A stretch of DNA of 64,000 bases from a virus. The position numbers were made by a program, and so were the translations under genes. The notes beneath the pieces are model-generated. The model saw only the letters and a program-made list of their open reading frames with translations. It searched no databases and was not told the origin of the DNA. Location: UHGV virus genome UHGV-0311442. One strand, given 5' to 3'. Shown piece after piece: positions 26,659 to 51,171 of the stretch (positions are counted from its first letter, which is position 1; each line of letters begins with the position of its first letter).

Positions 26659-28785
26659 TTAAATAACTACCCAGCTTTTACCATCGGAGCCAACTTGCAT
26701 TAGCGTAATACTTTCAGTGGTCTCAATGGGTTTGGCAAGACCTTCCGTCCCACCCTTTGGAGTGATGAGAACGTTCGAATTTTGCGGTTTAACGGTGATC
26801 GAACCAGCCTTATTTGCCACGATCTGTATATTTCTACCCACGCTATATTCTAGATCAGGAATAGTAAGTTGGCCGCCACGGTTGGTGGCTGGGAAATACA
26901 CATAAGACGATACATCTTCCTCAGATAACACTATACTACCAGAATCACGATTGACCGAGATCTCAAACTTAGAAATATCGATATCGTAGGCAGTAACTTT
27001 CGTAATATCTGTCAGAACCAATTCGTTCAAATTGGTCTTAGCTGTACTGTTCGCCAGATCAAATGGAGTGCCATTCTTGCCGTCAAGCACAGGCGTGACT
27101 TTGATTTTATTGTCACCCGGATAAATGATTTCAAACGTATGCCAGTTATTATCGTACGCACCAAAAGTTCCTAATTGCACATTCTGCTTTTTATGATGCA
27201 TCAGATAAAGATTCGTACCGTCGGTCTGTAAGAAAAAAGACATTAAGTACGGGTTCGTATCAGCCACACCAGCGTCAGCAAGTGTAGTACCAGAAGGTAG
27301 GTCGGACGCGGAAATACGCCAATAAAGTCCTAATCCGAAACGATCTGCTGCTAAATCACCTTTTAGTCTAAAAGTAACGGTCAGACGTCCACCGTAACGT
27401 ATCATGTCCGCAGCAGATGTCATTGACTTAGTTACATTCCAAGGTTTCATCGTTACAGCCTTTCTTAATTCGACGAAATGCCCGTTTCCATCCTCAGAAT
27501 CTTGCACGGTTACGTTACAATCAACGATATTGTTCCAACCCTGCCCTTTCAGGGAACCATCTCCACGACGTCCGTTATAACCCACAGACTCTACTAATGG
27601 GGTATAGCTTCTTACCACATTCATATTGTCTTTGAGCTCTTTAGTGTCGTTCTTCGTCAGGAGCATTGCACCATTCGCTGTTCTTGATAATATCTCAGCA
27701 GCTATTCTCTCTGAGATAATACCGCGTCGTGCCCAAGAACTGAAATGGCTATTCCTTGTTTCAGACGTCCAGTTTTTATTACTACGGGTGGCAGCACCGT
27801 AGTAGGCAGCACCAGCGATATCAGGATCGTCAGTGGGATCATTAGTCGGTACACGTTGGCCATTATCGTCGTACATGAATGGAACAAAAAAGATATTTTT
27901 TTGTTCATTGTTACGATAATTACCGTATATGGTTTCATATTGAACAGGATATTTTTCCTTCCAATAGTAGGTAGTGTCCCCGCAGATCCATGGTACTTCG
28001 GCGGTGTCGTACTCGGGCATCTGAGAGAGATGGTCAGAGAGATCAGTTCGGAAACGCTCTACCATTGCCATAAATAACGCTGGTTGTTGTGCGTAACCTA
28101 CTTTAGTCAGATCATACTCCCCCTGCATCCACACTACAGCCAAGAGTTTATTTTTAGGATTAACGTCCAGAGCTTTTTTGGTCCGGCTAACTAAATCTTT
28201 ATAAAGAGGTTTTTCCACCCCCCATACCGATGACGTCGCAGAGGCTCCTGTGGCTTCATCGAAGGTACCTTCTGCACCACCCGTGAAAGCAGAACCGCCG
28301 CGTGCGCAGGGTACTAGTAAGATACCAGCGTTGCTAGGAATATACGGGAGAAGACGCTTCGCGATGTGTAGACCTTGACCCACACATCCGTATTCACCTT
28401 TGTCCAAATTGGCTTTGGGGTGCGAGAATACGGACATATCTTGCACGTCGTGCAGACAGTGATCCGCTGGAATGACGTCGTTATACTTACAATCAGCACC
28501 ATTAGGCGTTACCTTCGCACGGCGCGCCATTTGTTTAATCCGCGGATCGGGAGCGTCCAACGTCGCTGGTAAAGGCAATCCTTCACCATAACTCATCGCA
28601 TTAGATTGCCCGGCTATAGGGATCACGAAGTAATAATCCGGTTCCGTCACCCCCCCCCCTTGAAGTTCTGCAATATCAATTTTATATTCTTTTTCTTCCT
28701 TAGAAAGGAGAACTACCGCACCTTTGAGATCGCCAGAGAAATTGTCGAGTTCATGGATACGTTTCTTTCCAATTGGTTGAACCAT
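26659..28785 (-). CDS. Tail fibre / tailspike with N-terminal SASA/SGNH-type carbohydrate O-acetylesterase domain
   Basis: IAGQSNAMSYG (GQSN block of sialate-O-acetylesterase-like esterases) near the N-terminus; ~700 aa; RBS ggagg before ATG 28785 (ORF-track TTG at 28797); G10 tract in codons for QGGGV. Confidence 0.7.
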   Translation of the reverse strand: MVQPIGKKRIHELDNFSGDLKGAVVLLSKEEKEYKIDIAELQGGGVTEPDYYFVIPIAGQSNAMSYGEGLPLPATLDAPDPRIKQMARRAKVTPNGADCKYNDVIPADHCLHDVQDMSVFSHPKANLDKGEYGCVGQGLHIAKRLLPYIPSNAGILLVPCARGGSAFTGGAEGTFDEATGASATSSVWGVEKPLYKDLVSRTKKALDVNPKNKLLAVVWMQGEYDLTKVGYAQQPALFMAMVERFRTDLSDHLSQMPEYDTAEVPWICGDTTYYWKEKYPVQYETIYGNYRNNEQKNIFFVPFMYDDNGQRVPTNDPTDDPDIAGAAYYGAATRSNKNWTSETRNSHFSSWARRGIISERIAAEILSRTANGAMLLTKNDTKELKDNMNVVRSYTPLVESVGYNGRRGDGSLKGQGWNNIVDCNVTVQDSEDGNGHFVELRKAVTMKPWNVTKSMTSAADMIRYGGRLTVTFRLKGDLAADRFGLGLYWRISASDLPSGTTLADAGVADTNPYLMSFFLQTDGTNLYLMHHKKQNVQLGTFGAYDNNWHTFEIIYPGDNKIKVTPVLDGKNGTPFDLANSTAKTNLNELVLTDITKVTAYDIDISKFEISVNRDSGSIVLSEEDVSSYVYFPATNRGGQLTIPDLEYSVGRNIQIVANKAGSITVKPQNSNVLITPKGGTEGLAKPIETTESITLMQVGSDGKSWVVI

Positions 28786-28820
28786 TGTAACCTCCAATTT
28801 TTAAACCAATACTCTTCCGG

Positions 28821-41893: not shown

Positions 41894-41962
41894 TTAAGCT
41901 GTTCCTCAATTAATTTTTGTTTACGTGTGCATAATTAGACACGAAAGCGTAAAAATAAATAC

Positions 41963-41988
41963 TCCCTCTCTCCAAACGGAGAGAGGGA
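41963..41988 (-). terminator. Rho-independent terminator (repeated hairpin, copy 2)
   Basis: tccctctctccaaacggagagaggga with T-run on minus strand. Confidence 0.6.
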
Positions 41989-41992
41989 AAGT

Positions 41993-42499
41993 TTACAGTA
42001 CGTTTTCTTCGCGATCGTCTACTAAAATAGAAGTAATCACATAGCGCGCTAAGCGACTGCGTGCTTCTTCCGTTTCTTCTTCAGAAGGTAGCTGTTCGCC
42101 CGCAGGTGCACACAACGTTAGCCCAGACTCACGAAGCTGTTCGGTATAGTCTTCCACGGCGGAGTCGAACGTACCGCGAATACCTGCTACCGCATCCATA
42201 ATCTCGTCGTTCGGAATAATGGATTCTTTTAGCACAGCGTGAGCATCCGTAGGCTCTACCATTTGCAGGTTCTGTTCTACCAGCAACGCCTGTTTCGCTA
42301 AGCTGTCGGTGATAAAGCAAGACAGAATCTTTTCGAAATCGTCTAACGAGAATTCGGTGTCTTCAGATGCCCCGGTAATCAGTTGCCCGTAGCGATTAAA
42401 GAATTCTTTACAACGTGTTTCGTAGTCAGCTTCTAAGTCGCGAACACCGAGATCAAAATCGTGCTGCTCAAGCTGATTAAAATCCAGAGTCTCTTTCAT
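41993..42499 (-). CDS. Hypothetical acidic protein
   Basis: ORF. Confidence 0.6.
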   Translation of the reverse strand: MKETLDFNQLEQHDFDLGVRDLEADYETRCKEFFNRYGQLITGASEDTEFSLDDFEKILSCFITDSLAKQALLVEQNLQMVEPTDAHAVLKESIIPNDEIMDAVAGIRGTFDSAVEDYTEQLRESGLTLCAPAGEQLPSEEETEEARSRLARYVITSILVDDREENVL

Positions 42500-42537: not shown

Positions 42538-42765
42538 TTAGAGTGCCAACGTTAACCCGGTATGGGTTTCTACTGAACCAACACCGTCACGCGCTTTTGC
42601 TTTGGCGATGAGTTTGTCAATCACGCGCTGATGGCTACGAGTAATGACTTTACCTGGATAACCGATAATCAGCACGTTCTCAGTATTAATAACCGCCGAG
42701 AATTCGTTATCACCTGCGACGTAAGTAATCTTTTTGTCTTTGGTTACAATACGTTTGATTTCCAT
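42538..42765 (-). CDS. Hypothetical protein (75 aa)
   Basis: ORF. Confidence 0.5.
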   Translation of the reverse strand: MEIKRIVTKDKKITYVAGDNEFSAVINTENVLIIGYPGKVITRSHQRVIDKLIAKAKARDGVGSVETHTGLTLAL

Positions 42766-42774
42766 TCAATGTCC

Positions 42775-43548
42775 TTAAAAGATAAAATGGCCAGTTAATG
42801 CTTCTACTTCAACACCAGACATTGCTGGAGGTGCTGAGTATGGAAAAGTAAGACGCACGGTTGCACCCTTTAAATACGCAATACGGCAGTATGCGGTCAA
42901 GAGCGCATTCCCGTAAGTACGGTCGTTATAGAAGAAACCTTCGGTTGCAAACGTCTTTTCGTTGATTTTCGAATAGACTAAAATACCTTCAACTTTACCG
43001 TCTTTACGACAGCACAGCCCTTCGGCAGCCCCAATAGCTAACAATCCCAGGGAGTACGTATCCAAACTGACATTAGCCACCTTAGGAATCGTAAACGTTT
43101 CTTCTAACGTTAGAGATTCAATGTCAACTACATCAGGTAAATCGGTGGGAACTTCGGGTTCTTCAGTAAACGTCAGGTCATAGTCGATAGACGTCGGCTG
43201 CATACCCAAAAACGCCATTAACTGATCACGATGATTTAGGTCATTGGCAGGGTAGGCGACATCAAACATCTCCACATTTAACAACCGTTTGAGTTGTGCG
43301 AAATTGATGTTCTTCTTCGCAAACACAACGATTGCTGACATGTAGAAAATCTTACCGTCAGTGCGGCCGGAGAAGATTCCTTGCAGCTGATTCGTGTTCG
43401 AAAGAATGATAAAGGTCGGATCTTCAGATTCGCGAATGACGTCCTTTTCCAGTAACCCTTTCCGTACACGGGTTAGTGAAACCATTTTCCCGTCCACACC
43501 AATTGCTAAATGGTCATTACGATAATCGTGGATATCCACTATGCGCAT
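42775..43548 (-). CDS. Hypothetical protein
   Basis: ORF. Confidence 0.6.
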   Translation of the reverse strand: MRIVDIHDYRNDHLAIGVDGKMVSLTRVRKGLLEKDVIRESEDPTFIILSNTNQLQGIFSGRTDGKIFYMSAIVVFAKKNINFAQLKRLLNVEMFDVAYPANDLNHRDQLMAFLGMQPTSIDYDLTFTEEPEVPTDLPDVVDIESLTLEETFTIPKVANVSLDTYSLGLLAIGAAEGLCCRKDGKVEGILVYSKINEKTFATEGFFYNDRTYGNALLTAYCRIAYLKGATVRLTFPYSAPPAMSGVEVEALTGHFIF

Positions 43549-44363
43549 TAGAGCACTCCCAGTAATTCAGTCACTGTTTTCCGAGCGGCACCAGACGCAC
43601 CCATATAGCGACCAACTTCAATACTACGCCACTCAAAACCGTAATAAATTTCTCGGGTGAGTAGGGTGTCTGCATTTGACAAAACGACGCTGTTGCCACG
43701 TTCCACCTGCTGCTGTAGTAACTTGGCTAATTCACGATGATCCGTTTGTGAGAATTCTTTACGGTGGTATTGCGCATGTTTCGCGGTATCCGATAACGGA
43801 ATATAAGGAGGATCAGCATAAATCACGGCATCCTCAGGTGTCCGTGCTAATACAGAACGAAAGTCCTCACAAACAATTTCCAGATACTCAACTTCTGCGC
43901 AACGTTTAGCCCAATCCCGAATTTCTTCTAATGGATAATAAACGCCGTTCGGGTAACGTCCAAACGGAACATTGAACCCACCACTACTGTTATAACGACA
44001 CATCCCGTTATAACCGTGACGCATTAAGTATAAAAACATTGCAGCACGTTCAACTTCGGTCATCGTTTTACCGCTATTAAACAGTTCACGACGTTCCATA
44101 TACTTTACAGTGGTATTGCCGTCTAAGAACAACGGTTGCGATGCAGCGATCAGTTCTTCAGGCTGTTCACGCGCAACACAAAGTAAGCGTATCAAATCGG
44201 GGTTAGAATCCGATAGAATATACCGGCTGTAATTCGTATTTAGGAAAACAGACCCTGCGCCCACAAACGGTTCTACAAAGGTTGTACGTTTAGGTAAGAC
44301 CTTTTGTAATTCACCCAAAACGCGCGTTTTCCCACCCATCCATTTAATTATCGGTTTCCGCAT
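43548..44363 (-). CDS. dam: DNA adenine methyltransferase (Dam-type, GATC N6-adenine MTase)
   Basis: VEPFVGAGSVFLNT (SAM binding), LFLYLMRHGYNGMCRYNSSGGFNVPFGRY and catalytic DPPY motifs, co-linear with E. coli Dam. Confidence 0.9.
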   Translation of the reverse strand: MRKPIIKWMGGKTRVLGELQKVLPKRTTFVEPFVGAGSVFLNTNYSRYILSDSNPDLIRLLCVAREQPEELIAASQPLFLDGNTTVKYMERRELFNSGKTMTEVERAAMFLYLMRHGYNGMCRYNSSGGFNVPFGRYPNGVYYPLEEIRDWAKRCAEVEYLEIVCEDFRSVLARTPEDAVIYADPPYIPLSDTAKHAQYHRKEFSQTDHRELAKLLQQQVERGNSVVLSNADTLLTREIYYGFEWRSIEVGRYMGASGAARKTVTELLGVL

Positions 44364-45342
44364 TATATCCGCCTTGTAACGATGACACTTCGTCGACTAA
44401 CACCAATTTGACATGATTTTTCTGACGCTCCCAACTGACGACGTTTTCGTCACGCACTAAAACAAATTCGTATTCGTAGGGGCGGAATTTAAATAATTCG
44501 ACGGCCAGGTGCCTGAATGCAGGGTTGTTATTGAAACACCCTATCTCTAATGGTGCCGCTGTTGTCGATGCAATTTGTAGAGCACGATACAATAAAGTCC
44601 GTCCGATACCACGACCCCGATGTGTCTCACTTACCGCAATGGCTTTTAATTCACATTCGTTAAGATTACGCAATTTAACTTGCACCGCGCCCACAACATC
44701 GTTGCCGTCCATCCAAACGTAGGTGTGGTGGTTGACATGACGTACTAACTCCACCAACGTTTCGACTTGTGGCATGATTTGACGTGAGCGACTCACAGGG
44801 TCAGCGTTGATGTTTTCAACGACACTCGTACCCAAAAGCAACATAAGCTGTTCACGTTGTGCAGCGGTTAGCTCTTTATAAAAATCGCCGGAAATGTTCT
44901 TCACGTTTGTTGGTAGAGCGATATCCAATAACGAGCGTGTACCTAAACGATACGTAGTGTGGGTGTGTCTAAATCCTAAGTCATTAAGCTCAGCGATTTC
45001 TTCTACACCACTGGCGATTCGATTAAGATACGTAAAACCGGTATAGTCGAGTACCAGTAGCAGGTTCAGTTTGTTCAAACAACCCGGTACAATTTCATGC
45101 ATATACAAACAGTGTAACGTTGGGTCGCCGTAAATGTGTTTTGTGATGATAAACCCTTGGATTGTTTTTCCTTTTTGTAAAGAGAACGTATTCAGTTCAC
45201 TATTGCACAACGCCTCACGAATCACCGCGCCGTTAGGGCCCGATAAACATGCCTGAAGTTGAGGGTTGCGAATATCTCTACGTGCTAACCGACCTACTGT
45301 TAAATCCGTGGCGGTATGTTTTATAATCTTCATAAAAGCCAT
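44344..45342 (-). CDS. Protein with C-terminal GNAT acetyltransferase domain
   Basis: HRGRGIGRTLL acetyl-CoA binding motif (R/Q-x-x-G-x-G/A) near the C-terminus. Confidence 0.6.
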   Translation of the reverse strand: MAFMKIIKHTATDLTVGRLARRDIRNPQLQACLSGPNGAVIREALCNSELNTFSLQKGKTIQGFIITKHIYGDPTLHCLYMHEIVPGCLNKLNLLLVLDYTGFTYLNRIASGVEEIAELNDLGFRHTHTTYRLGTRSLLDIALPTNVKNISGDFYKELTAAQREQLMLLLGTSVVENINADPVSRSRQIMPQVETLVELVRHVNHHTYVWMDGNDVVGAVQVKLRNLNECELKAIAVSETHRGRGIGRTLLYRALQIASTTAAPLEIGCFNNNPAFRHLAVELFKFRPYEYEFVLVRDENVVSWERQKNHVKLVLVDEVSSLQGGYNAETDN

Positions 45343-45406
45343 GTTAATTACTCCTTAAAAGGTCGTCTCAAAACAATACGCTAAAGTTGTAAAAACAAAA
45401 AAGAAA

Positions 45407-45424
45407 GGGGAACCGAAGTTCCCC
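45407..45424 (-). terminator. Rho-independent terminator
   Basis: ggggaaccgaagttcccc hairpin with T-run on minus strand. Confidence 0.55.
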
Positions 45425-45436
45425 AATTATTAAACA

Positions 45437-46108
45437 TCATGCAGAAGGGGCAGAGTTTGTAAAAGCAAGATTGGGTGTCAAGCCAGCTTTCCCTAATTTT
45501 TCATACAGGTAATTGAAAAATCTGAGATGGGCGTCGTAGTGGCCAGCCGCTACTCGCTGACCGTAAACTTCTACCAAGTCAGGCGAAAACTTAATATGGC
45601 AGTTTTGTCTAGAGAACAAAGGTTGTTGCACCCCACCCTTAATTAAGATGCGATACTTTTTACCGTCGTCTGTTACGGCGTGAAGAATATTTGTACTGAA
45701 ATGGAAATAGATAGAAGGGTTAAAACACAACCAGGTGGCGGCAGTGATTAGTAAGTCAGCTAACTTAACAGCGATTTTGTCAAGTTCAGGCCCTTCAAAC
45801 TTATGCATTAACCGCAGAAGAATTTCAGTAATAACCGTGCCTGTAAGTAATTTGTCTCTATTGAGACCAGGTGCAACCGCCAAAACATCACCATTATAAG
45901 TGCAGACAAGTGTGAATAAGTTGAAAGGCTGGTCTTGATAAAGTTCGAAAACCAGGTCAGTATACGGGCTAAAAGTTAAGAATTTCACCCCGAGTATTTC
46001 ATTAACGCAGGGTAAAAGCTCAACTTTCACAGGCGGTTGTGCTTCGTTAACTTTAGTCTCGTTCTTTACAGTTTCTTCAATTACAGTTTTACCAATTTTC
46101 GGTGGCAT
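45437..46108 (-). CDS. Hypothetical protein
   Basis: ORF. Confidence 0.6.
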   Translation of the reverse strand: MPPKIGKTVIEETVKNETKVNEAQPPVKVELLPCVNEILGVKFLTFSPYTDLVFELYQDQPFNLFTLVCTYNGDVLAVAPGLNRDKLLTGTVITEILLRLMHKFEGPELDKIAVKLADLLITAATWLCFNPSIYFHFSTNILHAVTDDGKKYRILIKGGVQQPLFSRQNCHIKFSPDLVEVYGQRVAAGHYDAHLRFFNYLYEKLGKAGLTPNLAFTNSAPSA

Positions 46109-47233: not shown

Positions 47234-47295
47234 TATTGTTTTACCTTTACGCGCTTTTAGATAAAAGGGGTGTAAAAAACACCCCTTAGTTTTAC

Positions 47296-47910
47296 TTACA
47301 ATTCAAAATATGTGGAAATTAAGCTCTCAAGGTTACGTTCTTCGTACACTTCCTTACTCGTAGGGTAACCGACGGTATGGTATTTCGCTGTAAAAGAAAT
47401 GGCCTTGTTTGCAACGACGTACCGGTCATCGATACTCACCTTTTCAGGATGCTTGAGGCTGAGCGTGACGGTACGTATATGGGTCACCTCAAAATCTTTG
47501 ATGATAACGCGATCTCTGTGTCGTGAGATAGCAAAATTGCTACTGCCCGCCACGAACTCCTCATAACCGCCGACCAATTTAAGAGCTGCTAAACATGCAG
47601 TATAAGCGGGATATTTATCAGCCAATAGTTGTTCTTTTGTTACAAAGAGTTTATAGTCTTCCTCATCGCGAAGGTATCTCAGCAATAATTGGGAACGGAA
47701 TTTCGACAACAGTCTTTCGTACTGCGATTCCCAGAGTTTTCCATTTTCAGTGAAGAGATGACCAACGGTATACTTTAATTTCTCACCTTCATAAATCAAA
47801 AGCGAATTTTTCGAGACAAAGCCCGCATTCTTTCTATTTTCGCCAATTTCATTTTCAGCAACTTCAACTAAAGTGTAGTTGTTAGGGAGTTCAAAGCGCT
47901 TAATTTCCAT
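47296..47910 (-). CDS. Hypothetical protein
   Basis: ORF. Confidence 0.6.
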   Translation of the reverse strand: MEIKRFELPNNYTLVEVAENEIGENRKNAGFVSKNSLLIYEGEKLKYTVGHLFTENGKLWESQYERLLSKFRSQLLLRYLRDEEDYKLFVTKEQLLADKYPAYTACLAALKLVGGYEEFVAGSSNFAISRHRDRVIIKDFEVTHIRTVTLSLKHPEKVSIDDRYVVANKAISFTAKYHTVGYPTSKEVYEERNLESLISTYFEL

Positions 47911-48038
47911 AATTTATCTCTCTTTAAATTGGTGAGTTACCGACTCACTACGGTTGTCACATTGATAATATCAATCTGTAATAAAATTTAGGGTAAAAAA
48001 AAAGAAACCCGCCCCTACCGTTAAGTAGGGGTAAGGTT

Positions 48039-49570: not shown

Positions 49571-50038
49571 TTAGATTTCCTTTATCATTTCCCTGCATTC
49601 GGTACGGAATCCCATTTTCTCATACAAGGAGATAGCTTTAACGTTGTTGTCTAACACATCCAGACTCATCCAACCACAACCTTTGGACTTTCCGTATTCA
49701 CGAACTTTGTCCATAAGCGCACGTCCTACCCCTTGAGAACGTGCTTCGGGAATCACATAGTAGTTCCCAATATAAACAAATGTGTCCTTCGAGCAAGAAC
49801 CTATTGAGAACGTCATGAAACCCAGAAGTTGTTCGTTGTCATCCACGGCACACGCACAGAGATAATCTTGGGGCCAAATCTCTTCTAAGTGTTCAATTGG
49901 GTTGAACGTGTCGCGACCGGTTAACTGACTAATACGCACTTTTTCTTCTGCGAACAGCATGTTGTGCAGTTTGAGTACCTGGTCGCCGTATAACTTTCCG
50001 TATTTACTGTCGGGTTTGAGAATAATAGTAATACGCAT
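49571..50038 (-). CDS. GNAT-family N-acetyltransferase
   Basis: ARSQGVGRALM motif A and typical ~155-aa length. Confidence 0.7.
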   Translation of the reverse strand: MRITIILKPDSKYGKLYGDQVLKLHNMLFAEEKVRISQLTGRDTFNPIEHLEEIWPQDYLCACAVDDNEQLLGFMTFSIGSCSKDTFVYIGNYYVIPEARSQGVGRALMDKVREYGKSKGCGWMSLDVLDNNVKAISLYEKMGFRTECREMIKEI

Positions 50039-51171
50039 TATTTAACCTCAATCAGCGACAACCTGCACCACACCAGTAACCCTTCCGCAACGCGCACTAA
50101 CGAGGTAGTAAACGCATCTTCTAAACGCAGTGCGTTTTTATAACGTACGGTAGCGTCGCGTAACTCCCGCCCTTCAAGCGACTTAAGTTCCTTACGCATA
50201 CGCTGAATTTCGTCATAAATTCCTGTATACCCTACACTACGTCGTTTCGCACCACGCTGACGTAACGCTCGGATAATGTTTCTAACGGCGTCGAGTGCTG
50301 AACCGATTTCGTGCAAGTTCAGAGATTTGATTGTGTGGCCAAAATCACCGTCGCGAGCAATCGCCCACTCAATCTTACCGTTGTTGTGTTCAACGACCAC
50401 CACGTTACCTGGCCACGGGTATGCTTTCACCGTTTTAAACGGATCGATAATACCGAACAGCCCTGCGCTTCGTTTAATCGCCCAGTTCGTTGACCGGCCC
50501 ACTTTCTCCAAACCACTCTCGGTAACTTTCTTGCTCTTACCGATTAACGTACGTGTTTTAACAGTATACTCGTTGACCATCGCATCCATTGCACTCAGGT
50601 TCTTACTGAACTCAATACATGCTTTTACGTTAGGCTTGTCTTCTAAACAAACTTTGGTTGTCCAACTTCCCGTGTCACAGTCAACCGGTTCTAAAGTGTC
50701 CTTGATACCGAGTAAACTTAAACGTGCTTCTAACTTCTGTAGCTTGCGCTCTAACGACGATGCTTTGGACGTCGCTTCTTTCAGTTCATTAATAACTTCT
50801 TTACCGGCGGCTTCCGCGAAGTCGATAAAACGTAAGGCCAATTGCTTAGAATGTTTACCTGCGAATTTTCCAGACGCTTTGGCTCCCGCCACTGCTGCTT
50901 TTCCAGCAACGCGTCCAACTCCCTTAACCGCTCTGCCGGTCGCACGCGCGACCGCTTTACCTACCCCTGCGTAAGGCTCGGTGTCCGCAACAAATTGCGC
51001 GCGTTCCATCATCGCTGCAGACTCCAACGCAACGTGGACATCATCTAAAGCCCACCGTTTTCGGATAGCGACAACCGCCGGATAATTGTCTTTAACATTA
51101 AGCGATTCTAACGCGACCAAACGATCGTAGTCATCGCAAAGGACTTCTAAATCGGAATCTAATGTTGACAT
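50038..51171 (-). CDS. Hypothetical protein
   Basis: ORF. Confidence 0.6.
   Translation of the reverse strand: MSTLDSDLEVLCDDYDRLVALESLNVKDNYPAVVAIRKRWALDDVHVALESAAMMERAQFVADTEPYAGVGKAVARATGRAVKGVGRVAGKAAVAGAKASGKFAGKHSKQLALRFIDFAEAAGKEVINELKEATSKASSLERKLQKLEARLSLLGIKDTLEPVDCDTGSWTTKVCLEDKPNVKACIEFSKNLSAMDAMVNEYTVKTRTLIGKSKKVTESGLEKVGRSTNWAIKRSAGLFGIIDPFKTVKAYPWPGNVVVVEHNNGKIEWAIARDGDFGHTIKSLNLHEIGSALDAVRNIIRALRQRGAKRRSVGYTGIYDEIQRMRKELKSLEGRELRDATVRYKNALRLEDAFTTSLVRVAEGLLVWCRLSLIEVK

Follow-up and report, generated by a model that had tools for sequence, protein, structure and literature searches.

A predicted Dam methyltransferase of an SPN3US-like jumbo phage appears to be a long-resident orphan gene in a putative five-gene operon

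The closest described relatives of the adenine methyltransferase studied here are the Dam of the Salmonella jumbo phage SPN3US (RefSeq ACQ60_gp161) and its orthologues in the SPFM phages, the Erwinia phages Asesino, phiEaH2 and Stratton and the E. coli phages EC001 and Lh1B, which match it in length and are 67-72% identical to it. Their annotations already read DNA adenine methylase or DNA methyltransferase. For the SPFM phages, a defence against restriction-modification has been proposed as the role of Dam (PMC6614189); experimental work on the Dam of SPN3US-like phages was not found in the literature searched. In the Erwinia phages of the Caitlin, Machina and Wellington groups, the identity to our protein is 50-53%. 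Outside the jumbo phages, its nearest relatives are found in prophages of Enterobacterales (for example the 'phage DNA adenine methylase' of Pectobacterium atrosepticum, and Salmonella phages SW3 and SI7), at 44-50% identity. These are likewise orphan phage Dams, but they belong to temperate phages of 30-40 kb, are often 280-320 aa long and group in a clade of their own. The functional class is shared with the Dam of T4/T2 and with P1 Dmt, the former encoded by virulent phages and the latter by a plasmid-prophage. Both methylate GATC on phage DNA in Dam-positive hosts, and they provide the precedents for protection (T4) and for pac methylation (P1) (PMC12707154). T4 Dam is about 25% identical to our protein over roughly two thirds of its length (residues 6-188), and the solved T4 Dam structures are matched with E=1e-10.

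We analysed a 64-kb stretch of viral DNA (UHGV-0311442; hereafter the window), which represents about a quarter of a phage genome. A metagenome scaffold of 224 kb shares about 97% identity with the window, and its size is comparable to the 240-250 kb or so of the SPN3US-type relatives. Its gene order is co-linear with SPN3US from 78 to 110 kb, and comprises virion proteins, a phiKZ-type internal head protein, a small GNAT, tmk, HTH, GNAT, Dam and tail genes, which identifies the phage with good reason as an SPN3US-like ('Seoul-like', Chimalliviridae) jumbo phage of Enterobacteriaceae. The lineage is an uncultivated one. No nucleotide match of 85% or more was obtained in the phage collection, and the nearest complete genomes, which share 82% nucleotide identity, have been deposited as 'plasmids' belonging to E. 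coli 98232 and Enterobacter ludwigii. A chimallin gene is absent from the 64-kb window. Since chimallin has been reported in SPN3US and in all 299 Seoul-like genomes surveyed (PMC9365700; 10.1101/2024.12.31.630880), relatedness to SPN3US suggests that this phage would also form a nucleus. A chimallin accession given in a preprint, YP_009153538, corresponds in RefSeq to a virion protein of 240 aa and is unusable as a chimallin query. Across the whole window, neither Rfam nor tRNA scans gave a match. The window also contains a NanS gene which, unlike dam, appears to have been imported.

The features of the locus are collected in Table 1. The earlier note had placed a Dam-type adenine methyltransferase here, and the open reading frame proved to be exact. 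The protein matches the Pfam family PF02086 (MethyltransfD12) with E=3.4e-57 and 194.5 bits against a cut-off of 22, over profile positions 1-248 of 253, and scores 254.2 bits with the 'dam' subfamily model TIGR00571, well above its cut-off of 114.85. The best PADLOC model was 'orphan methyltransferase' (E=3e-86). Residues 3-269 align with residues 5-266 of the solved E. coli Dam structure (2g1p; E=1e-64). The two proteins share fold family and motif order and are co-linear over about 265 residues, while ours lacks the 10-residue C-terminal tail of EcoDam. The order of motifs is that of the D12 class, with an FxGxG motif (F33-V-G35-A-G37), a recognition hairpin from Y118 to Y137 and a catalytic D184-P-P-Y187. 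As for the start codon, all but one of the 121 aligned Dams keep the K7-W8 motif, and we accepted the start at 44363 because it is the sole in-frame start upstream of this motif. A start at M9, which would abolish the overlap with the GNAT gene, was rejected since the conserved K7-W8 lies upstream of it.

Table 1. Minus-strand features at and around dam, in window coordinates
Feature	Position	Strand	Evidence or remarks
Strong terminator-like hairpin (12 pairs) with T-run	41962..41989	(-)	4 nt past the stop of the 168-aa gene
168-aa conserved hypothetical protein (phrog_8221)	41993..42499	(-)	last gene ahead of the terminator
75-aa conserved hypothetical protein (phrog_7896)	42538..42765	(-)	9 nt downstream of the 257-aa gene
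257-aa protein, function uncharacterised (phrog_9941)	42775..43548	(-)	ATG shares 1 nt with the dam TAA stop (TAATG)
dam, 271-aa D12-class (alpha-type) N6-adenine DNA methyltransferase, predicted GATC-specific	43548..44363	(-)	ORF with ATG; Pfam, NCBIfam and PDB matches; motifs
Overlap of GNAT 3' end and dam 5' end, 20 nt; dam in +1 frame relative to the GNAT gene	44344..44363	(-)	sequence ...GGATATAATGCGGAAACCGATAATTAA
332-aa protein, C-terminal GNAT acetyltransferase domain (about residues 195-285), N-terminal half uncharacterised; first gene of the predicted operon	44344..45342	(-)	PF00583, E=1.9e-12, above cut-off
TTTTTAC, candidate phage promoter element	45389..45395	(-)	47 nt upstream of the GNAT start codon; invariant in 7/7 aligned phages
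Terminator-like hairpin GGGGAAC-TTCG-GTTCCCC with T-run, closing the preceding unit	45407..45424	(-)	just upstream of the GNAT gene

No restriction enzyme or nuclease partner was detected by Pfam or PADLOC within four genes upstream and three genes downstream of dam, and we accordingly refer to it as an orphan methylase. The relatives share this arrangement of neighbouring genes. The context also differs from that of E. coli dam (damX-dam-rpe-gph-trpS), the phage gene lying among GNAT-like genes. Upstream, the RGRGIG of the 332-aa protein fits the acetyl-CoA-binding motif of GNAT enzymes, and a profile search of the PDB returned generic GNATs only, RibT, streptothricin acetyltransferases and RimI among them. 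In SPN3US (gp162), SPFM3, Caitlin and three metagenome contigs, an orthologue immediately precedes dam; Asesino, unlike the window, has no GNAT gene. The overlap of dam with the end of the GNAT gene, described in the earlier note, is real: the TAA stop of the GNAT gene (44346-44344) falls 20 nt inside the dam ORF. The spacing varies among the relatives, with an 8-nt overlap, direct abutment, or gaps of 3, 6 (in SPN3US), 8 and 79 nt, showing that the overlap itself is not conserved although tight linkage is mostly kept. We ruled out that a programmed frameshift joins GNAT to Dam, since dam is in the +1 frame, a slippery site is missing, and relatives lack the overlap.

Downstream of dam, the 257-aa protein belongs to a family found in one to three tandem copies in the relatives, SPN3US-type phages included. 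Pfam scans of all 14 members and a PDB profile search gave no credible match; the sole signal came from a profile-profile comparison (hhalign) with the family of the 332-aa GNAT protein, with a probability of 90.9% and E=1e-6 over 229 columns. This points to the 257-aa protein being a remote paralogue of the GNAT protein, one that is devoid of the acetyl-CoA-binding motif. AlphaFold2 models of the GNAT-containing and 257-aa proteins were unusable (mean pLDDT of 39 and 40.5, respectively, with 4-7 near-identical homologues as input). The GNAT protein, Dam and the 257-aa protein form a conserved triad.

Two hairpin terminators flank the five genes from GNAT to the 168-aa gene, an arrangement that suggests a single operon; the prediction also draws on the overlaps, the short gaps and the conserved upstream element. 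The hairpin ahead of the GNAT gene is kept in six relatives, in which the stem sequences differ and the pairing is preserved. Conservation of TTTTTAC makes it a candidate promoter. A second copy occurs at 41955, after the downstream hairpin, and 8 of the 13 minus-strand sites in the window lie in intergenic spacers, as do two of the three in SPN3US, where the intergenic fraction is 5.5%. A scan for sigma-70 promoters gave 6 sites against 12.3 in shuffled sequences, a result of little relevance here, as phages of this type use their own RNA polymerases; early promoters have been described for them (PMC7598289). Co-expression of dam with the GNAT gene, which had been suggested earlier from the overlap, is thus plausible in view of the conserved adjacency and the location of both genes between the two terminators.

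In addition, the GATC content of the phages was compared. In a Markov model, the observed/expected ratio of GATC was 0.61 in the window (z=-6.4), 0.38 in SPN3US and 0.44 in an E. coli-borne relative, while the Dam-less phages phiKZ and Goslar gave 0.89 and 0.69. By base composition, the ratios for phiKZ and Goslar were 1.27 and 1.24. GATC ranks first or second among the depleted 4-mer palindromes of the SPN3US-like lineage; it is depleted in the lineage that carries Dam, and less so in Dam-less phiKZ and Goslar. The co-occurrence of Dam with GATC purging was seen in Seoul-like genomes and not in these two Dam-less chimalliviruses. MutH is known to counterselect GATC in enterobacteriophages (PMC5014478).

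The most likely role of this Dam, judging from its sequence, would be to methylate the phage's GATC sites in enterobacterial hosts that are themselves Dam-positive. As an overall explanation, we consider it reasonably probable that the locus encodes a lineage-specific orphan Dam, produced from the five-gene unit, which methylates the phage's own GATC sites. According to this scheme, dam would be transcribed as the second gene of the unit, between the conserved terminator/TTTTTAC element and the strong terminator, and its translation is probably coupled to that of the GNAT gene through the 20-nt overlap. Dam would then methylate the phage GATC sites, already reduced to about 40-65% of expectation, and the progeny DNA would bear the same mark as the Dam-positive enterobacterial host. 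The mark would shield phage DNA from MutH and from DpnII/MboI-type enzymes, nucleases that cut unmethylated GATC. Such protection would matter most at entry into the next cell, ahead of the phage nucleus, and it has been suggested that the methylases found in nucleus-forming phages may shield the DNA immediately after entry (PMC7824862). The host Dam may fail to keep pace with DNA that replicates within the nuclear shell, or may have no access to it. The need is not a general one: Goslar, a nucleus-forming phage of E. coli, has no Dam at all, from which it follows that a phage Dam is not generally required in this lifestyle. For the same reason, we discarded the notion that a nucleus-forming phage must supply its own Dam whenever its host is Dam-positive. 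The roles in restriction-protection, packaging and expression that the earlier note had suggested for a phage Dam are generic ones.

If methylation fully protected GATC, strong avoidance of the site would seem unnecessary. The presence of Dam together with GATC avoidance may instead indicate that GATC becomes a liability once methylated, or that the sites left in the genome have a regulatory function. Along the latter line, Dam might mainly regulate the phage cycle, by way of packaging initiation as at P1 pac, replication timing or promoter switching, rather than protect. Phage P1 does need methylation of its pac GATC (review PMC12707154), and genome-wide purging with some sites retained would fit the remaining ones being signals. 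However, no GATC cluster of the pac or ori type above random expectation was found in the 64-kb window, about a quarter of the genome, and GATC was not conserved in the two promoter-like regions that were aligned across relatives. We hold this regulatory role to be unlikely, though still one of the better-placed alternatives. Equally improbable, in our estimate, is that the Seoul-like Dam and the diverged GNAT-like paralogues on either side of it make up one conserved, possibly early operon that marks the phage chromosome beyond the reach of the host Dam, the combination of Dam and GATC purging then reflecting a specific function or liability of methylated GATC and not generic anti-restriction. 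Methylated GATC may in that case act as a self/non-self mark or a packaging mark, or may expose the DNA to methyl-dependent nucleases or SeqA.

Dam could also be aimed at host DNA or host processes. Excess cytoplasmic Dam could, for example, abolish hemimethylation-dependent sequestration by SeqA as well as the strand discrimination of mismatch repair, the phage genome meanwhile being protected by its nucleus. The shell is indeed thought to enclose the phage genome and to keep many proteins out, and dam lies in a block of small non-structural genes behind a conserved AT-rich motif that resembles early promoters (PMC7598289). The hosts, however, are Dam-positive already and little gain is evident, and the depletion of GATC argues that the phage DNA itself is under GATC-directed selection. 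We regard a host target as rather improbable, and give it less weight than either of the two preceding possibilities.

Self-methylation of the phage DNA presupposes an enzyme that is active and reads GATC, and the contact residues bear on this directly. K7, Y118, N119, R123, P133 and Y137 correspond in the alignment to K9, Y119, N120, R124, P134 and Y138 of EcoDam and are all identical; the roles of the EcoDam contact residues in reading GATC have been described (PMC4417163). The AdoMet-binding and DPPY residues are identical as well. The one exception among the GATC contacts is L122 of EcoDam, a residue touching the third base pair, which is replaced conservatively by M121. Drift to a non-GATC specificity, or loss of catalysis, is conceivable on account of this substitution, and no experimentally characterised member of the clade of 27 Dams to which our protein belongs was found in the literature searched. 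Against this, M, V and I are frequent at the position among the 121 aligned Dams (M is found in 13 others), all other base-contact and catalytic residues are those of EcoDam, and GATC is the palindrome that the lineage specifically depletes. In addition, dam is under strong purifying selection, with dN/dS = 0.02 against the 97%-identical scaffold, and dN of 0.13 with saturated dS against the relative at 82% nucleotide identity; compared with Asesino and SPFM3, Dam is 72% and 67% identical, and the neighbouring genes 25-63%. A drifted or dead enzyme is therefore very unlikely, and homology predicts an intact AdoMet-dependent N6-adenine methyltransferase with activity and GATC specificity.

The earlier note had called the protein closely co-linear with E. 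coli Dam and had read this as recent acquisition from, or adaptation to, an enterobacterial host. The comparison with the host protein that it had proposed was carried out with E. coli K-12 Dam by BLASTP, and gave 115 identities in 269 positions (43%; 7 gapped positions in three small gaps; E=3e-74). The co-linearity holds motif by motif over the full length, but at 43% identity 'closely' is an overstatement. With the equivalog model of the enterobacterial chromosomal Dam (NF008152 / PRK10904), the protein scores 256.9 bits, below the cut-off of 441. In a neighbour-joining tree it groups with other jumbo-phage-associated Dams in a clade of 27 members (bootstrap 100/100), with E. coli Dam outside; the named phages and the long contigs in this clade are jumbo phages. 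Its identity is 67-72% to the Dams of SPN3US and Asesino, and reaches 82% among other jumbo-phage Dams. The locus recurs in at least 50 jumbo-phage records, dam occupies a constant slot at about 97-106 kb in genomes of about 240 kb from at least four phage genera, and the synteny tmk-HTH-...-GNAT-Dam-X is shared with jumbo phages of Salmonella, Erwinia and E. coli. The GC content of dam is 0.447 against a window mean of 0.446, and its codon usage is phage-like. Compared with the 82% relative, the window shows more divergence in dam than in the neighbouring genes, which suggests exchange of alleles among related phages and not strictly vertical descent.

Taken together, these data point to dam being a long-resident, lineage-specific gene of SPN3US-like jumbo phages. 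A recent horizontal capture of a host dam, for which the shared motifs, the full-length co-linearity and the position of Enterobacterales genomes and their prophages as the nearest non-jumbo relatives might speak, is already effectively refuted by the modest identity to E. coli Dam beside that to other jumbo-phage Dams, the monophyly of the clade, the score below the equivalog cut-off, the syntenic slot fixed across several genera, and a composition free of the anomaly seen in NanS. Adaptation to an enterobacterial host, the other half of the earlier suggestion, is reasonable, as the isolated phages carrying the locus all infect Enterobacterales and GATC is depleted as in classical enterobacteriophages (PMC5014478).

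The origin of dam is thus corrected to that of an old resident of the phage lineage. The gene is recognisable, its SPN3US-type orthologues are already annotated, and as it stands little changes in that respect. It is, however, embedded in a conserved, predicted operon of GNAT-like paralogues, and in the small sample of chimalliviruses compared, GATC is avoided by the same lineage that has Dam. If this link between Dam and GATC avoidance holds across the family, it would offer a testable handle on why a phage shielded by a nucleus invests in host-like methylation.

The 271-aa product of dam matched the whole PF02086 profile of Pfam (D12-class N6-adenine methyltransferase, E=3.4e-57) and scored 254 bits with the TIGR00571 'dam' subfamily model of NCBIfam, which requires 115; its top PADLOC model was 'orphan methyltransferase' (E=3e-86). 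Its best match among solved structures was E. coli Dam (2g1p, E=1e-64; residues 3-269 of the window Dam against 5-266), followed by DpnM (1e-39) and T4 Dam (1e-10). BLASTP against the E. coli K-12 Dam reference sequence from NC_000913.3 gave 115/269 identities (43%) with 7 gapped positions. The earlier note had called the two proteins closely co-linear. Since both alignments are full-length and motifs are shared, co-linearity holds, but at 43% identity the window Dam is not a close copy.

In order to read specificity, an alignment of 121 Dams was inspected at the GATC-recognition residues of E. coli Dam. In that enzyme R124 reads the fourth base pair, L122 and P134 the third, and K9 and Y138 the first, while Y119 intercalates and N120 also belongs to the recognition residues (PMC4417163). 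K7, Y118, N119, R123, P133 and Y137 of the window Dam were identical to these readers; M121 replaces L122, at a position where M, V and I are frequent in the family. The AdoMet loop (FVGAG) and the catalytic motif (DPPY, 184-187) are both preserved, and dN/dS against the closest scaffold was 0.02, indicating purifying selection. The sequence strongly implies an enzyme that would be GATC-specific and catalytically competent, rather than one altered in specificity. We also observed that the deposited dam starts of SPN3US (RefSeq, at the MGGK methionine) and Asesino (GenBank, 29 codons in) lie too far downstream; both omit the conserved K-W motif contacting the first base pair, and full-length ORFs are available in both genomes.

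Features of the dam region and related loci (window positions unless marked; L010, SPN3US 75-125 kb; L013, another SPN3US piece; L001, Asesino)
Feature	Position	Strand	Remark
GNAT ORF	44344..45342	minus	332 aa, upstream of dam
dam	43548..44363	minus	ATG-initiated, 271 aa
257-aa ORF	42775..43548	minus	ATG shares one base with dam TAA
75-aa ORF		minus	9 nt after 257-aa ORF
168-aa ORF		minus	38 nt after 75-aa ORF
Hairpin + T-run terminator	45424-45407	minus	just upstream of GNAT gene
Hairpin + T-run terminator	41989-41962	minus	just after 168-aa gene
Hairpin/TTTTTAC units	54587, 47999, 45395, 41955, 39860, 29077, 19137	minus	window
Hairpin/TTTTTAC units	L010 19187, 20794		SPN3US
223-aa ORF	45437-46108	minus	just upstream of GNAT operon
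Additional stretch	47248-47995		~700 nt
204-aa ORF	47296-47910		within additional stretch
Small GNAT gene	49571-50038	minus	155 aa
Internal head protein gene	50038-51171	minus	phiKZ-type
Esterase gene	26659-28797	minus	712 aa
SPN3US dam	L010 21852-22670
Asesino dam	L001 5001-5819
YP_009153538.1	L013 20024-20746		240 aa

A Dam differing in one residue (99.6% identity) was found on a 224,230-bp ENA metagenome scaffold whose DNA is 96.7-98.2% identical to the window. Genes near dam include those for a phiKZ-type internal head protein, virion structural proteins, thymidylate kinase and long tail fibres, and SPN3US 78-110 kb is co-linear in gene order with the window. The closest isolates by Dam were Erwinia phage Asesino (72%) and the Salmonella SPN3US/SPFM phages (67%); the phage collection held no long near-identical DNA, its sole match being 122 nt within dam (81% to Asesino). 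Relatives at 82% nucleotide identity are filed as complete circular 'plasmids' of ~222 kb, from a human urinary E. coli isolate (NZ_CP173450.1) and Enterobacter ludwigii from a gull (NZ_CP134650.1), and a Shigella sonnei assembly contains a related contig and a gene 94% identical to the one that follows dam. These records are consistent with the reported persistent infection by virulent Seoul-like jumbo phages, which persist in Escherichia assemblies and all encode chimallin (preprint 10.1101/2024.12.31.630880). The chimallin of SPN3US and its lattice have been described (PMC9365700). No chimallin gene lies within the 64-kb window, so it is relatedness that suggests that this phage may form a nucleus. 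The SPN3US chimallin accession quoted by a preprint, YP_009153538.1, is a 240-aa 'virion structural protein' in RefSeq, which looks like a citation or numbering mismatch.

Recent acquisition of dam from an enterobacterial host, as proposed earlier, is essentially refuted by five results. Dam identity declines stepwise (82, 72, 68, 58, 50-53%) through a series whose sources, where known, are jumbo phages or contigs of 168-251 kb; beyond it lie Dams of Enterobacterales genomes and prophages (44-50%) and that of E. coli (43%). All 27 Dams of the series formed one clade (bootstrap 100/100) in a neighbour-joining tree of 54 sequences, with E. coli Dam outside, and the window Dam, at 257 bits, fell short of the 441 required by the E. 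coli Dam equivalog model. At least 50 jumbo-phage records, covering SPN3US-, Asesino-, Caitlin/Machina- and Wellington-type groups, contain the gene, in many of them at about 97-106 kb, and its neighbours were the same at every locus inspected. Its GC content is 0.447 against a window gene mean of 0.446 ± 0.032, and codon usage, too, is phage-like, whereas E. coli dam scores opposite. Against the 82% relative, synonymous divergence of dam is saturated while neighbouring genes have a dS of 0.6-0.9; alleles have thus probably been exchanged among related jumbo phages.

The start of dam overlaps the end of the GNAT gene, whose TAA lies 20 nt inside dam. The GNAT domain is genuine and occupies the C-terminal third of the 332-aa protein (PF00583, E=1.9e-12), for which a PDB profile search returned generic GNATs only. 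GNAT enzymes have a known acetyl-CoA-binding motif, and RGRGIG within this segment fits it. The order GNAT protein (about 315-332 aa), Dam, and one to three proteins of about 245-276 aa recurs in SPN3US (gp162-gp161-gp160/159), SPFM3, Caitlin and three metagenome contigs; Asesino, unlike the window, has no GNAT gene upstream of dam. The downstream family had no Pfam or PDB match, but in profile-profile comparison an alignment of 229 columns linked it to the GNAT-containing family (90.9% probability, E=1e-6). Dam therefore lies within an array of diverged paralogues, and the upstream member alone has kept the cofactor motif. A second, small GNAT gene directly follows the internal head protein gene, the two ORFs sharing one base, and SPN3US has a matching pair (gp171 and gp172). 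The 223-aa ORF is hypervariable (38% identity to the 82% relative, flanking genes 87-93%), had no family match and may be a diversifying or exchanged gene.

Hairpin terminators bracket the five genes, and a further one follows tmk. Six relatives retain the hairpin that precedes the GNAT gene, its stems varying in sequence yet pairing; behind it, the aligned relatives show an invariant TTTTTAC and a TGTGA-like element. Of the 13 minus-strand TTTTTAC sites in the window, eight fall in spacers between genes, ahead of a gene, several directly behind hairpins; in 50 kb of SPN3US, two of three sites fall in the 5.5% that is intergenic, and one of these precedes the GNAT gene. A related TATAT(A/T)TTAC...GTGAGAG element precedes the HTH gene, and the unit is conserved upstream of both the GNAT and HTH genes in all aligned relatives. 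The recurring intergenic unit comprises a GC-rich hairpin, a T-run, TTTTTAC and, in many cases, (T)GTGAGA before the ribosome-binding site, and could serve a phage RNA polymerase as a terminator/promoter cassette. Broadly similar AT-rich early-promoter motifs are conserved in jumbo phages that have their own RNA polymerases (PMC7598289). The terminators and conserved element make it plausible that the five genes form one operon, possibly early, and these sequence patterns support the suggested co-expression of the GNAT gene and dam. The additional stretch, missing from the otherwise 97-98% identical ENA scaffold, carries a 204-aa ORF with no family match and, with its flanking hairpin/TTTTTAC units, looks like a moron-like insertion.

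GATC usage in jumbo phages
Sequence	Sites	Obs/exp composition	Obs/exp Markov	z
Window, 64 kb	161	0.66	0.61	-6.4
SPN3US, 50 kb	86	0.44	0.38	-9.2
E. coli-borne relative, 44 kb	79	0.47	0.44	-7.5
phiKZ (Pseudomonas host), 50 kb	219	1.27	0.89	-1.7
Goslar, whole genome (237 kb)	1138	1.24	0.69

GATC was the second most depleted 4-mer palindrome in the window, behind CTAG, and the most depleted in the SPN3US sample; the window held no GATC clusters beyond chance. Goslar, a nucleus-forming E. coli phage, had no Dam homologue by tblastn or profile search, even though the host is Dam-positive. Depletion is weaker in the comparison chimalliviruses phiKZ and Goslar than in the Dam-encoding Seoul-like genomes. 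In this sample, which is small and non-independent, with Goslar the comparison phage searched for Dam, the Dam-carrying lineage is the GATC-purging one. GATC avoidance is a classical trait of enterobacteriophages, and MutH action on phage DNA that is under-methylated has been put forward as its cause (PMC5014478). Most simply, a reduced number of sites and self-methylation would both answer one liability, unmethylated GATC, set in a Dam-positive, MutH-positive host; alternatively, methylated GATC may itself be costly or regulatory. The esterase gene, of the NanS/NanS-p type for 9-O-acetyl-sialic acid (E. coli NanS 3pt5, E=1e-121; NanS-p C-terminal domain 6yp6, E=5e-37), is GATC-rich (14 sites in 2.1 kb against one per 398 bp overall). 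Among the phage-collection matches listed, all were lambdoid or Stx prophages, about 50% identical, and nearly every matching record was an E. coli/Shigella phage. These features suggest that the gene was imported fairly recently and that the host is a gut E. coli/Shigella.

Orthologues of dam already carry the annotation DNA adenine methylase in SPN3US, the SPFM phages, Asesino and the E. coli and Enterobacter 'plasmid' records, and the adjoining gene as GNAT acetyltransferase in SPN3US and both 'plasmids'; an anti-restriction role was already proposed in the SPFM paper (PMC6614189). The paralogue array, the conserved terminator/TTTTTAC element and the association of Dam with GATC purging are not described in the literature searched. 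Pfam and PADLOC detected no nuclease or restriction component among the neighbours of dam. The gene is intact and under selection, an orphan of the Dam family that is specific to the lineage of SPN3US-like jumbo phages. Its rival roles are a P1-like regulatory or packaging function and action on host DNA. We favour methylation of the phage's own GATC sites, which would protect or mark its DNA chiefly on entry, before a nucleus forms, as has been proposed for methylases of nucleus-forming phages (PMC7824862), and may do so also during replication within a shell from which host Dam may be excluded.
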